64,000 nucleotides of DNA from an uncultured bacterium (GTDB lineage Bacteria; JAGOEH01). This document shows positions 1 through 6,107 of the stretch, piece after piece. The stretch's first letter is position 1; the number at the start of each line of letters is the position of its first letter. The notes below the pieces were generated by a model. It did no database searches. It saw nothing but the letters and a program-made list of their open reading frames with translations, and was not told the origin of the DNA. Location: NCBI GenBank assembly GCA_964632485.1, contig CAZWDO010000008.1:1-64000 (forward strand). The letters run 5' to 3'. Both the position numbers and the translations under genes were made by a program.

Positions 1-227
1 CGGTGGTTTACCGTCTAAAAACAGCCGGCAAGGCGCGGGTGGAGATTTTTAATTCACTGGGGCAGGTCTTGTCGGTGCTGGACGACCAATACCGGGCCGC
101 CGGCGAATACCGTGTGGTCTGGAACGGCCATGACGCAACCGGACGCGCCATGCCCACGGGCGTCTATTTCTACCGTATCATCTGCGATACCGAAATTTTT
201 GTCCGTAAGATTTCTTTGGTAAAATAA
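1..227 (+). CDS. 3' end of a secreted protein: FlgD-Ig/T9SS-type C-terminal domain (5'-truncated by window edge)
   Basis: VEIFNSLGQ...WNGHDATG...PTGVYFYRI...RKISLVK is the typical FlgD-Ig/secretion CTD pattern; ends at TAA 225-227. Confidence 0.8.
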   Translation, partial: VVYRLKTAGKARVEIFNSLGQVLSVLDDQYRAAGEYRVVWNGHDATGRAMPTGVYFYRIICDTEIFVRKISLVK

Positions 228-242
228 TAGCCTTTTTTCCCA

Positions 243-363
243 CCCTCGCCCCCTTTGGGGGAGAGGTTTTTCAACTTTACCCTCACCCCCTTTGGGGGAG
301 AGGGCAGGGGGAGGGGGTACTCCAACTTTACCCTCGCCCCTTTGGGGAGAGGGCAGGGTGAGG
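243..363. repeat. Three tandem REP-like palindromic units, CCCTC(G/A)CCCC(C)TTTGGGG(G)AGAGG
   Basis: Units at about 243-266, 272-316 and 323-363; units 2 and 3 share the CAACTTTA prefix and a GGCAGGG(G/T)GAGG tail; each can fold into a hairpin. Confidence 0.85.
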
Positions 364-396
364 AGATTCTGGCAGGGGTCGGCGCGGAAAATTTGC

Positions 397-425: not shown

Positions 426-485
426 TCAGGGGATGAAAAAATATATCCACTTTAAGATTAAGTTTAAATCAGTCAGCGGCTATTT

Positions 486-1013
486 ATGAGTCACTGGGAA
501 TTTATTAAACAGGATGCGTTGCGGGAATTTAAAAATGCCCGGAAATCATGGGACTATTATGAATTATTTTATCAGGGACTGAGTAGCCAGGCTAAAGAGT
601 ATTTGCAGTCTCAATCACGGGAATACAAACAATATCTGAATGAACTGCAGGCCATAGTCTTGCCTGTAGTGAGCGAGACCTGCCCGGTTTGCGCCACCCA
701 GTGCTGCCATTTGGTTACACCCGAATTGTCGATTTGGGTTGCCGGTTTGGTAGGTTGTTTCCGCATGGTGGATTACTTGTTGGCTCGCTGTGATACGGAA
801 TTTCCTGTACCAAAGTTGGAGAACGCGGAATCAAACCTTTGTCCGTTTTGGGATCAGGGATGTGTACTACCGATCGATAGCCGAAGCTGGCTTTGTATTC
901 AATTTTTTTGCGATCCCTTGAAAACAAGACTCGATATGCAAAAAGTCGATCCGCTATTAGAGAAAATTAATGCCATTATCATTAATTTTTCTTTACAAAA
1001 ATGTATGGTTTGA
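486..1013 (+). CDS. YkgJ/CxxCxxCC-like cysteine-cluster protein (putative Fe-S or Zn binding)
   Basis: CPVCATQCC motif followed by CPFWDQGCVL...RSWLCIQFFC, matching the CxxC..CC / CPFL..GC..RP..C..F.C layout of this family. Confidence 0.65.
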   Translation: MSHWEFIKQDALREFKNARKSWDYYELFYQGLSSQAKEYLQSQSREYKQYLNELQAIVLPVVSETCPVCATQCCHLVTPELSIWVAGLVGCFRMVDYLLARCDTEFPVPKLENAESNLCPFWDQGCVLPIDSRSWLCIQFFCDPLKTRLDMQKVDPLLEKINAIIINFSLQKCMV

Positions 1014-1056
1014 TTTAAAAAAAATTATTGAATTAGTATTTAGAAAAAATATGCCC

Positions 1057-1701
1057 TTAGGATCCGGAAATGCATTCGTCTTGTGGGTGAGCTCCATGGG
1101 CGCAATCACTTTTATCGTCGCGGGATGCTTCGTAACCATTGATGCAGTCCCCGGCGGCAAAATTGCCGTATTCGCAGAAACTGCCTTTCAATGAATCGGT
1201 ATTCTCATAGATTCCCGGTTCGCTGCTTTGTAACCACGTAGCCAGGGTTCCAGTACCGCAACTGCTTGCATTATATCCGCCATCACACTGGTTAAAGGCG
1301 TTGGCTCCGGTTCCACAATGGGGTCCGTTTGTGGCAAATCCTCCGTTACAAATATTTGCATAGTTTCCACCCTTGCAGTTGGCGCCAACACCGCCCGAGT
1401 TTGTACTAGAGCCTGTATTACATTCTGCCGTTCCTGGTCTGCTTCCGGTACCGCATTGCGGAACATCGCCCGTTTCGGCGTTATCCCCGGTGCTGCAATA
1501 ATTCCCACCAGCCTGATCCCCGGAAACGCAATCCCCGCTTGCATGATCACCCGAATTACATTGCAGCGCCGCAGCGTTGCCGGCGTTGCAACCCGCCGGA
1601 ACTGTGCCCGCGTTACAGCCGGGATAGGTGGAGCCTTGAGCATAGGCGGCAGTCAGCATCTCAAAGGATATAATTTCGGGGGACTGATATTGTTTTTTCA
1701 T
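1057..1701 (-). CDS. Cys-rich CxxG-repeat protein with YxxP leader (putative RiPP-like precursor A), 214 aa
   Basis: Leader MKKQYQSPEIISFEML; 16 Cys, all as CxxG; Gly/Ala/Asn/Ser-rich; no signal peptide; own promoter. Confidence 0.75.
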   Translation of the reverse strand: MKKQYQSPEIISFEMLTAAYAQGSTYPGCNAGTVPAGCNAGNAAALQCNSGDHASGDCVSGDQAGGNYCSTGDNAETGDVPQCGTGSRPGTAECNTGSSTNSGGVGANCKGGNYANICNGGFATNGPHCGTGANAFNQCDGGYNASSCGTGTLATWLQSSEPGIYENTDSLKGSFCEYGNFAAGDCINGYEASRDDKSDCAHGAHPQDECISGS

Positions 1702-1708
1702 ACTATTT

Positions 1709-1736
1709 AAGATAATACATTTTTTTTTTTTGTCAA
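1709..1736 (-). promoter_or_regulatory. Sigma70 promoter of precursor A (predicts leaderless mRNA)
   Basis: Minus strand TTGACA(1736-1731)-N16-TATCTT(1714-1709)-N7-ATG(1701); no SD. Confidence 0.65.
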
Positions 1737-1788
1737 TAGTTTTTTTAAAATTTGGAATTTTATTAATTGGCGGGATTATAAATTCCGC

Positions 1789-1816
1789 TTGACATTTTTT
1801 AAAACTATTCTATATT
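1789..1816 (+). promoter_or_regulatory. Sigma70 promoter of HprK-like gene 1, divergent from precursor A (predicts leaderless mRNA)
   Basis: TTGACA(1789-1794)-N16-TATATT(1811-1816)-N6-ATG(1823). Confidence 0.65.
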
Positions 1817-1822
1817 CAATCA

Positions 1823-2800
1823 ATGCGGCCAATGGTTTACTTCAGGATACATCATTATTTTTTCCGGTTTTTCTATCCCGAACAAACCTTTTTGCGAATC
1901 AAGAACCAGCAAATCTACGATTTTTTAACCCCTGATCAGCCGATAGGACAAAGCTCACTCGAGTCCATTGATATCGATATTCATATCCATATCGTGGAAG
2001 GTTTATGGAATGAGAACCTTTTTCCGTATGGATTCGAGATTTATCCAGCCATCAGTCATCCGGACGGGTCTCTCCCTTTGGAGAAAATTTTAACATCGTC
2101 CGATGTTTTATTTCATCTGTCTGCAATCGATATTCATACCCCTTTAGATAAAAAGGTTATTGTTTACCAATACCAGAATCATGTTTTGTTTCTCAATACT
2201 CAGACGCAGAAAGGGGTCTTGTTTATATTATCCAAAAACAAGCGCTATGTGCGTATCCATGATAATATATTTTATATATTGGTCAGCTATCTGTTTTTAA
2301 TCAATGATGGCATCGTGTTTCACGGAGTTGGCTTTTCACACCGGCAAAACGGTTATATCTTCCTGGGTTCTTCCGGATCCGGCAAGAGCACACTCCAGCA
2401 GATGAATTCCGGTAAAACGTGTTATGCCGATGATGGCGTTGTTATTGCCCGTCGGTGTAATGCCTATGGGTTATTGCCCAATCCCTTTTACCAGTTTCCG
2501 TATCAGCCCGATCATTCCAGATTAAAAGAAGCCCAACTCAGGGCGATATTTTTCATTAACCAATCCCCGGATACTTATATCACCCCGTTTGAAGATAGAA
2601 TGCGGGTGTTGCCGATGCTATTGATGCAGTTTCAACAGTTTTATCCCTTTTTTAAAGGGGCATTACGCCTTCGGGCGATCGATTTTACTCAGGAAATGCT
2701 CAGGCATATCCCTTGTTATCATCTATATTTTTCTAAACAAGACGCGGATATATTCCAGCTAATCGATCAATTGAATTTAGAAACTAATGATGTGGGATGA
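1823..2800 (+). CDS. HPr-kinase-related P-loop protein 1 (ScmC-like)
   Basis: IVFHGVGF...IFLGSSGSGKSTL (Walker A)...YADDGVVI acidic motif; typical H-x(n)-GxSGxGKST-x(n)-DD layout. Confidence 0.75.
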   Translation: MRPMVYFRIHHYFFRFFYPEQTFLRIKNQQIYDFLTPDQPIGQSSLESIDIDIHIHIVEGLWNENLFPYGFEIYPAISHPDGSLPLEKILTSSDVLFHLSAIDIHTPLDKKVIVYQYQNHVLFLNTQTQKGVLFILSKNKRYVRIHDNIFYILVSYLFLINDGIVFHGVGFSHRQNGYIFLGSSGSGKSTLQQMNSGKTCYADDGVVIARRCNAYGLLPNPFYQFPYQPDHSRLKEAQLRAIFFINQSPDTYITPFEDRMRVLPMLLMQFQQFYPFFKGALRLRAIDFTQEMLRHIPCYHLYFSKQDADIFQLIDQLNLETNDVG

Positions 2801-3030
2801 ATGCAGTCGGTGTTAAGGTTCAGTACTTAAGTAAATAATCCCGGTAATCGGTAAAATTTCAAATGAACCCTGAAAATTTCGAATAATAAATGCCATGAAC
2901 CTAGAAAAATGCCAGTCAGGATAATCAGTGAAACCTTTATAGGGAGATGCCATGACTGAACAGAATGTCTTATCTTTTTAATTGATAATGAATTGCTAAT
3001 GTGTACCATTGGTAAATATAATTTTTAAGA

Positions 3031-3936
3031 TCACAAGTTAGTGTTATTAAATTGGGCGAATAGATTTTGCTCCTGGGGATTGATGATAGCTGTATAGTAT
3101 TGCGCCTGTTTTGCCATCCTGATTAATAACTCCATCGTTGCTAAATAAATAGGGGGATTCATCAAACTAAAAAAAAATACATGGGTGATTAATTTTTCTA
3201 ATATTTGATGAGGTAACATATCCAGTTTAACCAACTGAGTAGTTGTTCCCTTTTCCAGAAAGCAGACGGCTTCAACCGGGACTGGACTTTTCGATGGGAT
3301 ATCCGCCTGGAATTGAAATTGATAAAATGGATTGGGAATGAGCCAGAATCGGTCGTTCCAATATTTAAGCAGAATTGATTCATCGGTATATGGATTTTGT
3401 AAAGGATAGGTATTGACGAGAGTGGATTTACCGATACCCGATTGCCCGAGAAAAAGTAAGCCTTTCTTTTCGGGGGCAAAAGCGGCGCCGTGCAGGAAAA
3501 TGGCCTGATTTAAGGGAGCGCTCATGGCGCAATGAAAAAATAAACTGTTGCTGTCCAAATAAATCCCATTGTTGGAAGTAATCGCATGGTAAAATCCAAT
3601 TTTGTTTTTGGGAGATATAAAATTGTCGAAGCGGCCTTTTTGAATATTTCGATGCAGATAGTGAATAGTATCCTGAAAAGCAACTGATTTGTGAGCCTTT
3701 GCGCTGAGTTGGGAAAAGAGTAATGGCGGAAATTTTTTCGATTGTTCGAGATTGGTCCCGAGAGCTTCTTTAACTGATGCATGAGCGTAGCAATTGAGTT
3801 CAAGCGCATTTGAAAAACGATTGGACATGGTATGATGAATAAACGGGCGTATTTTAGGGGGGATCAGTAATTTTTGGTCAGTGAAAACCGTGAGTTTTAA
3901 CTGCAGATCATAGAGCCGGAAATAAAGATCAGTCAT
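3031..3936 (-). CDS. HPr-kinase-related P-loop protein 2 (ScmC-like), paralog of 1823-2800
   Basis: IFLHGAAF...LFLGQSGIGKSTL...YTDESILL; shares PNPFYQF with protein 1; starts 14 bp after the precursor B stop. Confidence 0.75.
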   Translation of the reverse strand: MTDLYFRLYDLQLKLTVFTDQKLLIPPKIRPFIHHTMSNRFSNALELNCYAHASVKEALGTNLEQSKKFPPLLFSQLSAKAHKSVAFQDTIHYLHRNIQKGRFDNFISPKNKIGFYHAITSNNGIYLDSNSLFFHCAMSAPLNQAIFLHGAAFAPEKKGLLFLGQSGIGKSTLVNTYPLQNPYTDESILLKYWNDRFWLIPNPFYQFQFQADIPSKSPVPVEAVCFLEKGTTTQLVKLDMLPHQILEKLITHVFFFSLMNPPIYLATMELLIRMAKQAQYYTAIINPQEQNLFAQFNNTNL

Positions 3937-3950
3937 GAGGAGTGGAAAAA

Positions 3951-5084
3951 TTAATCAGCGAAACTGCCGTAACTGCAATTAGATCGCGGTGAGCTGCCAG
4001 TTTGACAGGGGAATGAGGTGGGCATAGGACCCAGGGAACAACCCCCTATGGGATTGCTGCCCAATTCGCAATAGTTTATGCCAGCTTGTCCGCCGGATTG
4101 ACATAGATTAGGGTCGATGGTAATGGTATTGCCGGGATAAGGATCGAAGAGCGGGTGGCTGCCTTGCTCGCATAAATCGCTTTGTGTCGGGGCGGGGATA
4201 ACCTGATTGGTAGCGCTGCCGACACTGCACGAACCCGCTGCAGTACTGCCTGAGCCGCATTGCCAGCCTTTAGCGGCAGTTCCGCTTTGGCAGGCGTTAG
4301 CGGCATAGCTGCCCGTTCCCTGGCAGGCGCCTACGCTGGCATTGCCCCCTGGTTGACACTGACCGGCGGCAGTATATCCTTGGAGACACTGAGAACCGGT
4401 CGCAATATTCCCATATTGGCATTGGCCGCCGGCTTCGCCGCCCGAAAGACACTGGTTGGCGCCAACCGCGGCATCATATCCGGTTTGGCATTGACCCTCG
4501 GCGTTGCCTCCGCTTAAACAATGATTGTTGCTGGCATTTTCGCCATGCTGGCACTGGCCGTTGCTGGCCTGATTCCCATATATACATTGGCCAACTGCGT
4601 TGTATCCATGATCGCAATATGAACTCGGATCAGCGCCAATCGCACATATCCCTGAACCGACGTTGTTATTGCCATTGTGGCACCACCCGGGCCCGCTGGT
4701 GTTGTTATTGCCATTAGAACAACCATTGTTGCCGGTATTGTTGTTTCCATTGCTGCAACTTCCCGTAGTCGCGCTGTTCCCATTGGAACATATTGCGATA
4801 GTCATCGGCGCATCGCCGATAGAACAATCGAGTTCCGGCACCGCCCCGCTTTGACAGTTGCTGTTGACATCTGCCGCTCCGGTCACACAATCCGGATCAA
4901 CGGTGCCCGTAAAGCACCCGTCTTCCGCGGTCGTACCATTAGTGCATTGCATGGTGGCGACTGCTCCAATCGCGCAAGTCGCTGCAATGTTGCCATTGGT
5001 ACAATCGCCCAAGGTCTGGCCCAGGGTCTGGTTACTCAATATATTAAAATCGAAGATTTCCGGATTAACGTATTTTTTCTTCAT
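3951..5084 (-). CDS. Cys-rich CxxG-repeat protein with YxxP leader (putative RiPP-like precursor B), 377 aa
   Basis: Start moved to ATG 5084 (MKKKYVNPEIFDFNIL) because the ORF-track TTG start is the -35 box; 31 Cys, 30 as CxxG; no signal peptide. Confidence 0.8.
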   Translation of the reverse strand: MKKKYVNPEIFDFNILSNQTLGQTLGDCTNGNIAATCAIGAVATMQCTNGTTAEDGCFTGTVDPDCVTGAADVNSNCQSGAVPELDCSIGDAPMTIAICSNGNSATTGSCSNGNNNTGNNGCSNGNNNTSGPGWCHNGNNNVGSGICAIGADPSSYCDHGYNAVGQCIYGNQASNGQCQHGENASNNHCLSGGNAEGQCQTGYDAAVGANQCLSGGEAGGQCQYGNIATGSQCLQGYTAAGQCQPGGNASVGACQGTGSYAANACQSGTAAKGWQCGSGSTAAGSCSVGSATNQVIPAPTQSDLCEQGSHPLFDPYPGNTITIDPNLCQSGGQAGINYCELGSNPIGGCSLGPMPTSFPCQTGSSPRSNCSYGSFAD

Positions 5085-5091
5085 GATGACT

Positions 5092-5120
5092 ATTATATAT
5101 TTTTTTCTAGTAAATGTCAA
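5092..5120 (-). promoter_or_regulatory. Perfect-consensus sigma70 promoter of precursor B (predicts leaderless mRNA)
   Basis: Minus strand TTGACA(5120-5115)-N17-TATAAT(5097-5092)-N7-ATG(5084). Confidence 0.8.
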
Positions 5121-5134
5121 GTACTAATTTAAAA

Positions 5135-5166
5135 AAAAGGCGGAGATAAATTTGTCTCCGCCTTTA
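5135..5166 (-). terminator. Intrinsic terminator after the 5190-5723 gene; separates it from the precursor B promoter
   Basis: AAAAGGCGGAGATAAA-TTTGTCTCCGCCTTTT hairpin; the A8 run at 5131-5138 gives the U-tract on the minus strand. Confidence 0.8.
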
Positions 5167-5189
5167 TTGACACGCCCAAAAAAGAAAAA

Positions 5190-5723
5190 TTAGCGCTCTT
5201 CTTCTTCCTGCTCTTCTTCGGTGTAGGGTTGGAGACTTTTGACAATCTTCATCAAGTCGTTAACCCATTTTTTAAATTCTTTAGGATTGGCAATAGTAAC
5301 GGCAGTCAGCACTTGCGCGTTCGGAGTGATCACCAGGTCAATGGAGACTTCGAGTTTACCTTTTTCCGCGGTACCCGACAATGTGACCATTGGCATCCCA
5401 TTGATCTCTGTTTCGGAGACATCTTCACTGAACTCAAGGTCATTGAGGGATTCTTCTAAATCTTTTTGTACTTTTAGAATGGCTTTTTCCACATCATCGG
5501 CGTCAATCACGAAGAAAACCATGGCAATGTGATCACCGGGCGATGAAACGACCAGAGTATCGCCTTCAGTGGCATTGGGAACTCCGTCGAGGGTTTGAGA
5601 CCAACCTTCCGGGATGTCGAACTGAACTTGCGCGGAGGACCAGATGTAGGTTTCGGCCTGAGCAAACGAAACGAGGAAAAACATACAGAATAATGCGGCA
5701 CACAACACTCGGCTTAGTTTCAT
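5190..5723 (-). CDS. Secreted hypothetical protein (possibly a PsbP/DcrB-like fold)
   Basis: SD AGGAG before ATG 5723; signal peptide ending AQA; FDIPEGW motif; acidic tail. Confidence 0.65.
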   Translation of the reverse strand: MKLSRVLCAALFCMFFLVSFAQAETYIWSSAQVQFDIPEGWSQTLDGVPNATEGDTLVVSSPGDHIAMVFFVIDADDVEKAILKVQKDLEESLNDLEFSEDVSETEINGMPMVTLSGTAEKGKLEVSIDLVITPNAQVLTAVTIANPKEFKKWVNDLMKIVKSLQPYTEEEQEEEER

Positions 5724-6107
5724 GCTTGAAACTCCTGTTAGATTGTTTTTTTTTTGCGCCATACATAACGCTCTAAATATATCATAAACAATTCTGTTTG
5801 TCAAGTTCATTTTTAAATAGGAGCGGGTTAAAAATTTATCGGAACCCGTATATTTTATCTCATACCTCTAGTTACAGAGAGCGGACGCGCCGTCATGATA
5901 GAAATTCCTTTAACCTTGGTTTTTCTTCCCGCCGGGAATAGTCAAAGCAGTCAATAGGTGCTTTTGAGGTATTTTCAACGGGCTTGCGGGGGATGGGTAG
6001 AAGCCGATTTTTAAAAAATGGTTCTTAAGACCCGGTTTTTTTATTGCTTTTAATGCCTTTTTTTTGTATATTCTATCATCAAATCTTAACTGAAGCGAGG
6101 TAAAGTC

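Follow-up and report, generated by a model that had tools for sequence, protein, structure and literature searches.

Near the left end of the window (positions 1-64,000 of contig C8, CAZWDO010000008.1, in the 4.45-Mb, 66-contig genome of an uncultured bacterium, here called G000) lie two gene pairs. Each joins a gene for a very long Cys-repeat protein, headed by a leader like those of ribosomally synthesised peptides that undergo post-translational modification (RiPPs), to a gene for a protein of the HPr-kinase fold. The two pairs probably belong to a dispersed and expanded peptide-maturation pathway of the SynChlorMet (Scm) type, with the long proteins as its ScmA-like substrates. The first-pass annotation of this DNA had seen five adjacent genes as the unit of a candidate new system; all five open reading frames (ORFs) were confirmed at their places and on their strands by an ORF check of the window, and the unit that proves to be conserved is the two-gene pair of precursor and kinase-like gene. 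Nor is the system wholly new: complete Scm-like cassettes of other phyla contain short CxxG precursors that share the leader and are homologs of the giant proteins, and by this homology the window pairs are to be regarded as a lineage-specific, expanded variant of the Scm cassette. The genes of the two pairs, with the evidence for each, are the following (lengths in amino acids, aa, and nucleotides, nt).

1057..1701, minus strand: precursor A, an ScmA-like giant precursor of 214 aa, with a 27-aa YxxP leader and then 16 CxxG repeats (16 Cys); ORF, paralogy, profile homology to short Scm-like precursors
1823..2800, plus strand: kinase-like 1, an ScmC-like P-loop protein of the HPr-kinase/phosphoenolpyruvate carboxykinase (PEPCK) fold, 325 aa, divergent to precursor A; hidden Markov model (HMM), motifs, AlphaFold2 (AF2), Foldseek
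3031..3936, minus strand: kinase-like 2, an ScmC-like P-loop protein of 301 aa, on the same strand as precursor B and 14 nt downstream of it; ORF, HMM, paralogy, motifs, tree
3951..5084, minus strand: precursor B, an ScmA-like giant precursor of 377 aa from its MKKKY start, with 31 Cys/CxxG repeats; ORF, paralogy, repeat statistics

Precursors A and B are paralogs (30% identity by BLASTP, E 4e-11) and, at 214 and 377 aa, abnormally long, both as first annotated. They fall within a set of nine giant precursors from three genomes of the phylum (G000 and its two sampled relatives, G001 and G002), which measure 198-377 aa and carry a MKKxYxxPEI leader followed by 16-31 CxxGxx(A/P) repeats of 10-11 residues. 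The leader spans about 27 residues (consensus MKKxYxxPEIFSFNxLSSQAxGQTS) and the repeat unit is CxxGxx(A/P)xxx. Eight leader positions (K2, Y5, P8, I10, F13, L16, G23 and T25) are invariant in the six precursors of G000, with the Cys and Gly columns following; the YxxP motif claimed for the window leaders is accordingly fixed at Y5 and P8 in 6/6 and present in all nine proteins. The first Cys is residue 28 or 29 in 9/9, the third residue after each Cys is Gly in 95% of repeats, the sixth is Ala (53%) or Pro (20%; 73% together), and of the 190 distances from one Cys to the next, 128 measure 10 or 11 residues. Lys plus Arg make up only 1.3-6.7% of the nine proteins. A leader and a Cys/Gly/Ala-Pro periodicity shared by 9/9 proteins go far beyond chance.

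The precursor DNA contains no tandem repeats, so that the CxxG periodicity is maintained at the protein level, and recent slippage was rejected as its source on the same ground. Near-identical DNA is present in a second sample, and the DNA contigs of the three runs compared show no repeat-number variants. The AF2 model of precursor A, built on a shallow alignment of 6 rows, has no confident fold (pLDDT 34.7) and is no argument for or against a beta-solenoid. The last residue of precursor A is Ser; the precursor of pair 6 (P6) ends in Ser-Ser-Thr, the other seven giants in residues other than Ser. Word-index protein searches with precursor profiles returned only precursor A, or nothing among longer proteins; as a sign of rarity this is weak, since the precursors are of low complexity and five of the six paralogs were likewise not returned.

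The two kinase-like proteins are also paralogs (25% identity over 219 columns, E 4e-19), and among named proteins they stand closest to the SynChlorMet protein ScmC, a kinship the annotation had suspected. The ScmC model TIGR04249 is the best NCBIfam match of kinase-like 1 (30.9 bits, E 1.7e-7) and gives 13.6 bits for kinase-like 2, both short of the 125-bit cut-off. For the window proteins Pfam yields nothing beyond sub-threshold P-loop matches, and its Hpr_kinase_C model gives 19.5 bits (cut-off 33.3) for the kinase of pair 3 (K3). The motifs that define the HPr kinase/PEPCK superfamily, GxSGxGKS with an upstream His and a downstream Asp-Asp set on the fold, are all present: the paralogs of G000 (6/6) show no variation in the His, GxSGxGKST, Asp-Asp or PxPF, nor at H167, G187-K188-S189-T190 or D203, while the N-terminal 140 or so residues are highly variable. 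The AF2 model of kinase-like 1 (pLDDT 86, pTM 0.86) is matched by Foldseek to ATP-dependent PEPCK and HprK/P with probability 1.0 (E 1e-6 to 3e-4); a profile search of the PDB gave P-loop-level matches only (1knx, E 0.2). The complex predicted for kinase-like 1 and the first 60 residues of precursor A had a score of 0.00 and a mark of 0.32, and counts neither for nor against an interaction.

When 1.84 billion representatives were searched exhaustively with the kinase profile, 12,367 proteins came up at E<=1e-3, of which 2,641 reached E<=1e-10; just nine matched over their full length at E<1e-40, six from G000 and three others. Among the top 50 family representatives, all of which retain the His, Walker A and DD, 41 match ScmC, every one below threshold. 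The search and these matches together point to a large ScmC-like family, unnamed in print, in which the giant-linked proteins form a small branch. A maximum-likelihood tree was built from 41 kinase-like proteins (row L012 was left out as a marginal match). In it the nine giant-linked members cluster with the kinase encoded in the G098 cassette described below (support 95/86), the kinases of class-1 cassettes fall on the opposite side (82/82), and the G000 paralogs are set on long branches.

A leader-motif scan of the genome together with tblastn brought the number of precursor and kinase-like pairs in G000 to six.

C8:1057-2800 and C8:3031-5084: pairs 1 and 2, in the window, each precursor + kinase-like
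C8:142191-144001: pair 3, precursor + kinase-like
C11:53150-55239: pair 4, precursor + kinase-like
C3:92328-94086: a further pair, precursor + kinase-like
C3:79158-80987: pair 6, precursor + kinase-like, with an ortholog in G001

One of the two sampled relatives has a single pair and the other has two, and the kinase profile finds matches in 3/3 phylum genomes. The linkage of kinase homologs to CxxG/YxxP ORFs that the annotation had anticipated is complete in this sample: all nine full-length-type kinase genes in the three genomes adjoin a giant precursor gene. Pair 6 and its G001 ortholog have kept both genes (53% and 50% identity) and all aligned Cys, with one 34-residue indel equal to three repeats. 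A leader-motif DNA scan of the genome_contigs collection added, among the matches listed (80 of at least 119 matching stretches), one more giant-type ORF (L146) and a class-2 pair from WOR-3.

The proposal that maturases act in trans fits what the rest of the genome contains, namely five PqqD-type ORFs and 11 SPASM proteins. A four-gene operon at C2:171972-174964 encodes PqqD proteins of 138 and 99 aa, which both pass the Pfam PqqD cut-off of 23.4 (43.7 and 37.2 bits), and two radical S-adenosylmethionine (SAM)/SPASM enzymes whose best matches are ScmE (219.4 bits, E 6.6e-65) and ScmF (316.6 bits, E 2.5e-94), each under the 400-bit cut-off. The SynChlorMet PqqD-related model TIGR04248 gives at best 25.5, 22.7 and 13.1 bits in G000 (cut-off 100). 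All three phylum genomes have an ScmF-like ortholog (67-72% identity) that lies beside ScmE-like and PqqD genes. In G001 the operon abuts a pair, the order on one strand being PqqD, ScmE-like, ScmF-like, 236-aa precursor and kinase, and this maturase-linked pair is the ortholog of pair 6 of G000. The adjacency of all components that characterises the Scm cassette is thus found in G001 and not in G000; as the operon lies on a separate contig in G000, its link with the pairs is drawn from the sister genome and from co-occurrence in the three related genomes. A single-query search for an S24/S26-type peptidase, with a query from distant cassettes, gave no match in G000-G002, an empty answer that shows nothing.

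Two other PqqD loci were seen in G000. At C5:133123-135861 (L035) a PqqD-like gene lies beside a 402-aa ORF and a gene resembling HprK-related kinase A, whose 32 bits fall short of the threshold; a separate PqqD-containing locus at C4:200685-204138 also has a 402-aa ORF nearby. These would be a second, different kinase-linked peptide system.

The wider comparison used the NCBIfam Scm models (ScmA TIGR04252, ScmC TIGR04249, PqqD-related TIGR04248, ScmE TIGR04250, ScmF TIGR04251). Among the 401 genomes sampled, 62 carry ScmC-like genes. Thirty ScmC-like loci were examined with 1.5-kb flanks, and under a strict leader search 11 have a plausible precursor and 19 have none. Class 1 precursors (49-83 aa) have a K-x-Y-x-x-P leader, 2-4 Cys, no repeats and a C-terminal Ser, the last in 8/8 (loci L025, L028, L043, L044, L048, L059, L063 and L064, two of them from one family). 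Class 2 precursors (80-99 aa; genomes G261, G103 and G098) have the same leader followed by 5-6 CxxGxxA repeats. Their cassettes are complete, encoding an HprK-like protein, ScmE/F-like enzymes that score 266-376 bits, PqqD and a peptidase of S24/S26-like type, to which G098 adds an ABC exporter. A profile of six class-2 precursors, among them the best match of the ScmA model, aligns with the giant-precursor profile over 84 columns (hhalign probability 98.6%, E 1.1e-15). The ScmA model reaches its cut-off of 35 bits in 0/401 genomes; the highest score, 26.6 bits, goes to a class-2 repeat precursor of 93 aa in G324, followed by PqqD and a radical SAM gene. In G000 it has no significant match (best E 0.84), three of its five best, non-significant matches there lie inside precursor B, and hmmscan of ten precursors against it gave none.

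The class-1 C-terminal Ser is the residue phosphorylated by lasso-type HPr-kinase homologs, and may indicate the role of ScmC in those cassettes. Loci mostly from Prevotella/Bacteroidales (L079, L097, L109-L111, L121, L124, L126, L136, L137, L142 and L152) contain many ORFs of 39-68 aa with a MKKxYxKPxIxxF leader, at most one Cys and acidic C-terminal halves, apparently another precursor family with the same type of leader. The literature searched, which covered few subscription journals, contained no experimental description of the SynChlorMet cassette or of its TIGR accessions; the matches listed under Scm gene names were unrelated, and no paper was found naming HprK together with SPASM and PqqD. 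A paper that joins HPr kinase, radical SAM and RiPP mentions the kinase only in lasso clusters.

In the pathway that we favour, the YxxP leader would be bound by the PqqD-type proteins of the single C2 operon, following established RiPP logic, and the ScmE-like and ScmF-like SPASM enzymes would then modify the single invariant Cys of each repeat. The product suggested by the invariant Cys of the repeat and by the SPASM maturases would most likely be one small thioether ring per repeat, from Cys to a nearby carbon, the Ala/Pro at +6 or the Gly at +3 being candidate acceptors. The adjacent HPr-kinase-fold paralog, one per substrate, would phosphorylate or otherwise handle its own substrate with ATP, before or during the Cys step. 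In lasso clusters, HPr-kinase homologs act on linear precursors with a YxxP leader, whose C-terminal Ser they phosphorylate (PMC8498205). It is from these kinases, together with the Ser-ending class-1 peptides, that a role of ScmC-like proteins as kinases of the linear precursor may be proposed; for the giants a conserved C-terminal Ser is excluded as the target. Pairing at 1:1 and the variable N-terminal domains suggest that each kinase-like protein recognises the core of its cognate substrate. The failure to find a peptidase or exporter in the phylum is weak evidence, but the giant products may remain full-length, uncleaved and unexported, unlike a classical RiPP. A more far-reaching version, in which the ScmE/F-like enzymes staple all 16-31 repeats to give six cross-linked 'bead-chain' proteins that stay uncleaved in or on the cell, each with a kinase-fold chaperone or kinase of its own, is speculative and on balance we doubt it.

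Several observations weigh against assigning the window pairs to an Scm-type pathway. All scores of the Scm models are below the NCBIfam cut-offs (ScmC 30.9/125, ScmE 219/400, ScmF 317/400, ScmD 13-25/100, ScmA non-significant). The pairs of G000 are on C8, C11 and C3 but the maturase operon is on C2, and neither an S24/S26-type peptidase (one query) nor an exporter was found near any pair. Unlike the substrates of lasso kinases, the giants include only precursor A with a terminal Ser (P6 having Ser-Ser-Thr). Three small radical SAM/SPASM genes beside pair 3 are specific to G000 and unexplained, and the giant-type precursor L146 (200 aa, 16 CxxG), from another metagenome-assembled genome, has no kinase gene within the 8 kb examined.

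These points leave room for other explanations, the best of which, improbable though we consider it, makes the HprK-like protein the sole modifier, so that the long proteins would be cytoplasmic phosphoproteins with modified Ser/Thr inside the repeats or following them; the ScmE/F operon would serve another substrate. The pairs are indeed self-contained, with promoter-like sites of their own, the catalytic residues are intact, no maturase accompanies five of the six pair loci of G000, and there is one kinase per precursor rather than one per two precursors as in WOR-3-type cassettes. However, the ScmE/F genes directly precede the pair in G001, the C2 operon has no other candidate substrate, and what is invariant in the repeats is Cys and Gly, not Ser or Thr.

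There is also a small chance that the long proteins are unmodified, cytoplasmic, thiol-rich proteins for metal or Fe-S binding or storage, or redox buffers, bearing an ancestral leader and regulated or loaded by the kinases. Their 16-31 regularly spaced Cys, acidic low-complexity composition, lack of a signal peptide and AF2-predicted disorder would suit such a function, as would the finding of no protease or exporter in the phylum. On the other hand, each stretch of 10-11 residues has a single Cys, CxC and CxxC clusters are absent, and the proteins are homologous to precursors of cassettes with a peptidase and an ABC exporter; the YxxP leader is moreover strictly retained in 9/9, which argues for continued recognition by maturation proteins.

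We give as little credence to a different alteration of the Cys, whether S-glycosylation or methylation by neighbouring tailoring enzymes or oxidation like that of anSME, in place of thioether rings. It draws on the neighbours of two pairs: pair 6 and its G001 ortholog adjoin GT1 genes and a 922-928 aa protein combining GT2, B12-binding radical SAM and methyltransferase parts, and pair 3 adjoins a GT1-DUF218 gene and the three extra radical SAM/SPASM genes. Yet the synteny is between two genomes of the same family only, the genes are on the opposite strand, and the remaining four pairs have no such neighbours. Finally, that the Cys-rich ORFs do not code for protein and are artefacts of DNA rich in GC and low in complexity is scarcely credible and effectively refuted by conservation: long overlapping ORFs do exist in other frames, and only one of the six precursor paralogs is a called protein in a large protein database, but the leader and the Cys/Gly positions are conserved in nine proteins from three genomes, the DNA has no tandem repeats, and four of five population single-nucleotide polymorphisms in precursor A are synonymous in the called frame (a weak point, at low depth).

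The surroundings of the pairs vary. Downstream of pair 3, on the same strand, are three small (268-303 aa) radical SAM/SPASM genes (C8:138492-142087; L001:3493-7088), the middle one of which (L001:5257-6162) found no match in G001 or G002 as a query, and a 319-aa ORF without family match; upstream are the GT1-DUF218 gene and a C39-like peptidase with a tail of the type IX secretion system (T9SS). The GT2, B12-binding radical SAM and SAM methyltransferase fusion is convergent to pair 6 and to its ortholog (G000 C3:81027-83795, L003:5028-7796, minus; G001 L022:4781-7567), with the GT1 genes following, and could be a tailoring enzyme or merely conserved gene order. A tRNA-Val (CAC) gene on contig C11 (L002:5073-5146) ends 4 nt before the start of the pair 4 kinase gene, possibly an insertion hotspot.

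The remaining features of the window locus are these.

242..370, no strand: three hairpin-like direct repeats of the ACCCTCGCCCCCTTTGGGGGAGAGG type (copies 242-354), from a repeat search; left boundary, outside the system
486..1013, plus strand: Cys-cluster protein, CxxCxxxCC, 175 aa, from an ORF; a neighbour, candidate member at most
1709..1736, minus strand: predicted promoter-like site TTGACA-16-TATCTT, ending 7 nt before the precursor A ATG
1789..1816, plus strand: predicted promoter-like site TTGACA-16-TATATT, ending 6 nt before the kinase-like 1 ATG
5092..5120, minus strand: predicted promoter-like site TTGACA-17-TATAAT, 12/12 consensus, ending 7 nt before the precursor B ATG
5133..5168, no strand: perfect hairpin with T-run, scored as a minus-strand terminator, that of the neighbouring gene 5190-5810; right boundary

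The fifth gene of the originally proposed unit is probably a bystander, judging from its distribution. Its identification as YkgJ-like did not hold, since its motif is CxxCxxxCC (CPVCATQCC) rather than CxxCxxCC and it has no Pfam or NCBIfam match at E<=1; in the Atlas it falls in unnamed clusters, with PF03692 (YkgJ) clusters appearing only at a score of 0.80 or TM 0.33-0.47, a weak lead. Nor could its membership of the system be upheld: it is single-copy in G000 beside six pairs, has no match in G001, G002 or 400 other sampled genomes, and has no look-alike in the other cassette loci examined, and it was rejected as a core component for these reasons. An 18-codon ORF (MKKYIHFKIKFKSVSGYL) that begins MKKY lies just upstream at 434-490 (+). 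A promoter-like site (397-425) precedes its start by 9 nt, and its stop overlaps the ATG of the Cys-cluster gene (ATGA).

Of the boundaries first described, the left repeats do exist as three local copies, but only five copies with at most 3 mismatches occur genome-wide, and their reading as a classical, abundant REP family was rejected for that reason. The hairpin on the right is scored as a terminator as claimed, although it belongs to the neighbouring gene 5190-5810, and because it ends that gene it marks the right boundary. The three promoter-like sites end 6-7 nt before an ATG, which suggests that the mRNAs of precursor A, kinase-like 1 and precursor B are leaderless or nearly so. A 30-nt inverted repeat, 80% complementary (1750-1779 and 2835-2864), flanks the kinase-like 1 gene. 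The contig begins within a gene (window 1-227, +) whose C-terminus resembles, as judged by eye, a T9SS sorting domain.

The Scm family is widespread, yet we found no description of its chemistry or product. Up to 31 identical-type sites in one protein would make a modification readily detectable by mass, the clean 1:1 pairing of kinase and substrate offers a route to testing the function of ScmC-type proteins, and G001 supplies a compact five-gene version suited to heterologous expression. The giant precursors also bear on the maximum substrate size for leader-guided radical SAM maturation. If the stapled bead-chain version were true, they would represent a new class of proteins, cross-linked after translation and structural or protective in function, rather than secreted peptides.

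Compared with known systems, the kinase-like proteins share with HprK/P and ATP-dependent PEPCK the fold and the His, Walker A and DD constellation, but sequence similarity is confined to the P-loop, the N-terminal domain is another one and there is no HPr context. With the lasso-peptide kinases (PadeK, ThcoK and SyanK, of the paeninodin type) they have in common an HPr-kinase-fold gene adjoining a precursor with a MKKxYxxP-type leader. The lasso substrate, however, is a precursor of about 40 aa modified at its C-terminal Ser, and since only precursor A ends in Ser here the analogy is not directly transferable; the window kinases are also nearer to ScmC than to the HprK-related families by HMM, and no Asn-synthetase-like cyclase or transglutaminase-like B2 protease of the lasso type is encoded among the ORFs flanking the six pairs, a genome-wide search for them not having been made.

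The radical SAM/SPASM thioether RiPPs (sactipeptides and ranthipeptides) likewise combine a SPASM maturase, PqqD-type recognition and a Cys-bearing precursor. In freyrasin, a ranthipeptide made by PapB, a repeated Cys motif gives one small ring per repeat, and the PapB and StsB models give secondary matches to the ScmE/F-like enzymes. The present system differs from these in its two distinct maturases, its added kinase-fold protein, its CxxGxxA/P motif and its protein-sized substrates of 16-31 repeats.

The SynChlorMet cassette is the closest of all, with its HprK-like protein nearest ScmC, enzymes nearest ScmE and ScmF, PqqD proteins, and a precursor with YxxP leader and CxxG repeats like that of the best ScmA-model match. 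Scm precursors, however, have about 50-100 aa, whereas the giants have 198-377 aa with 16-31 repeats; neither peptidase nor exporter was found here, the ScmC-like gene is multiplied to stand 1:1 with the precursors, and the pairs are scattered on three contigs, apart from the maturase operon. New in this lineage are protein-sized, 16-31-repeat substrates, six dispersed pairs in which each substrate has a private kinase, and an operon for the maturases that stands apart from these pairs.

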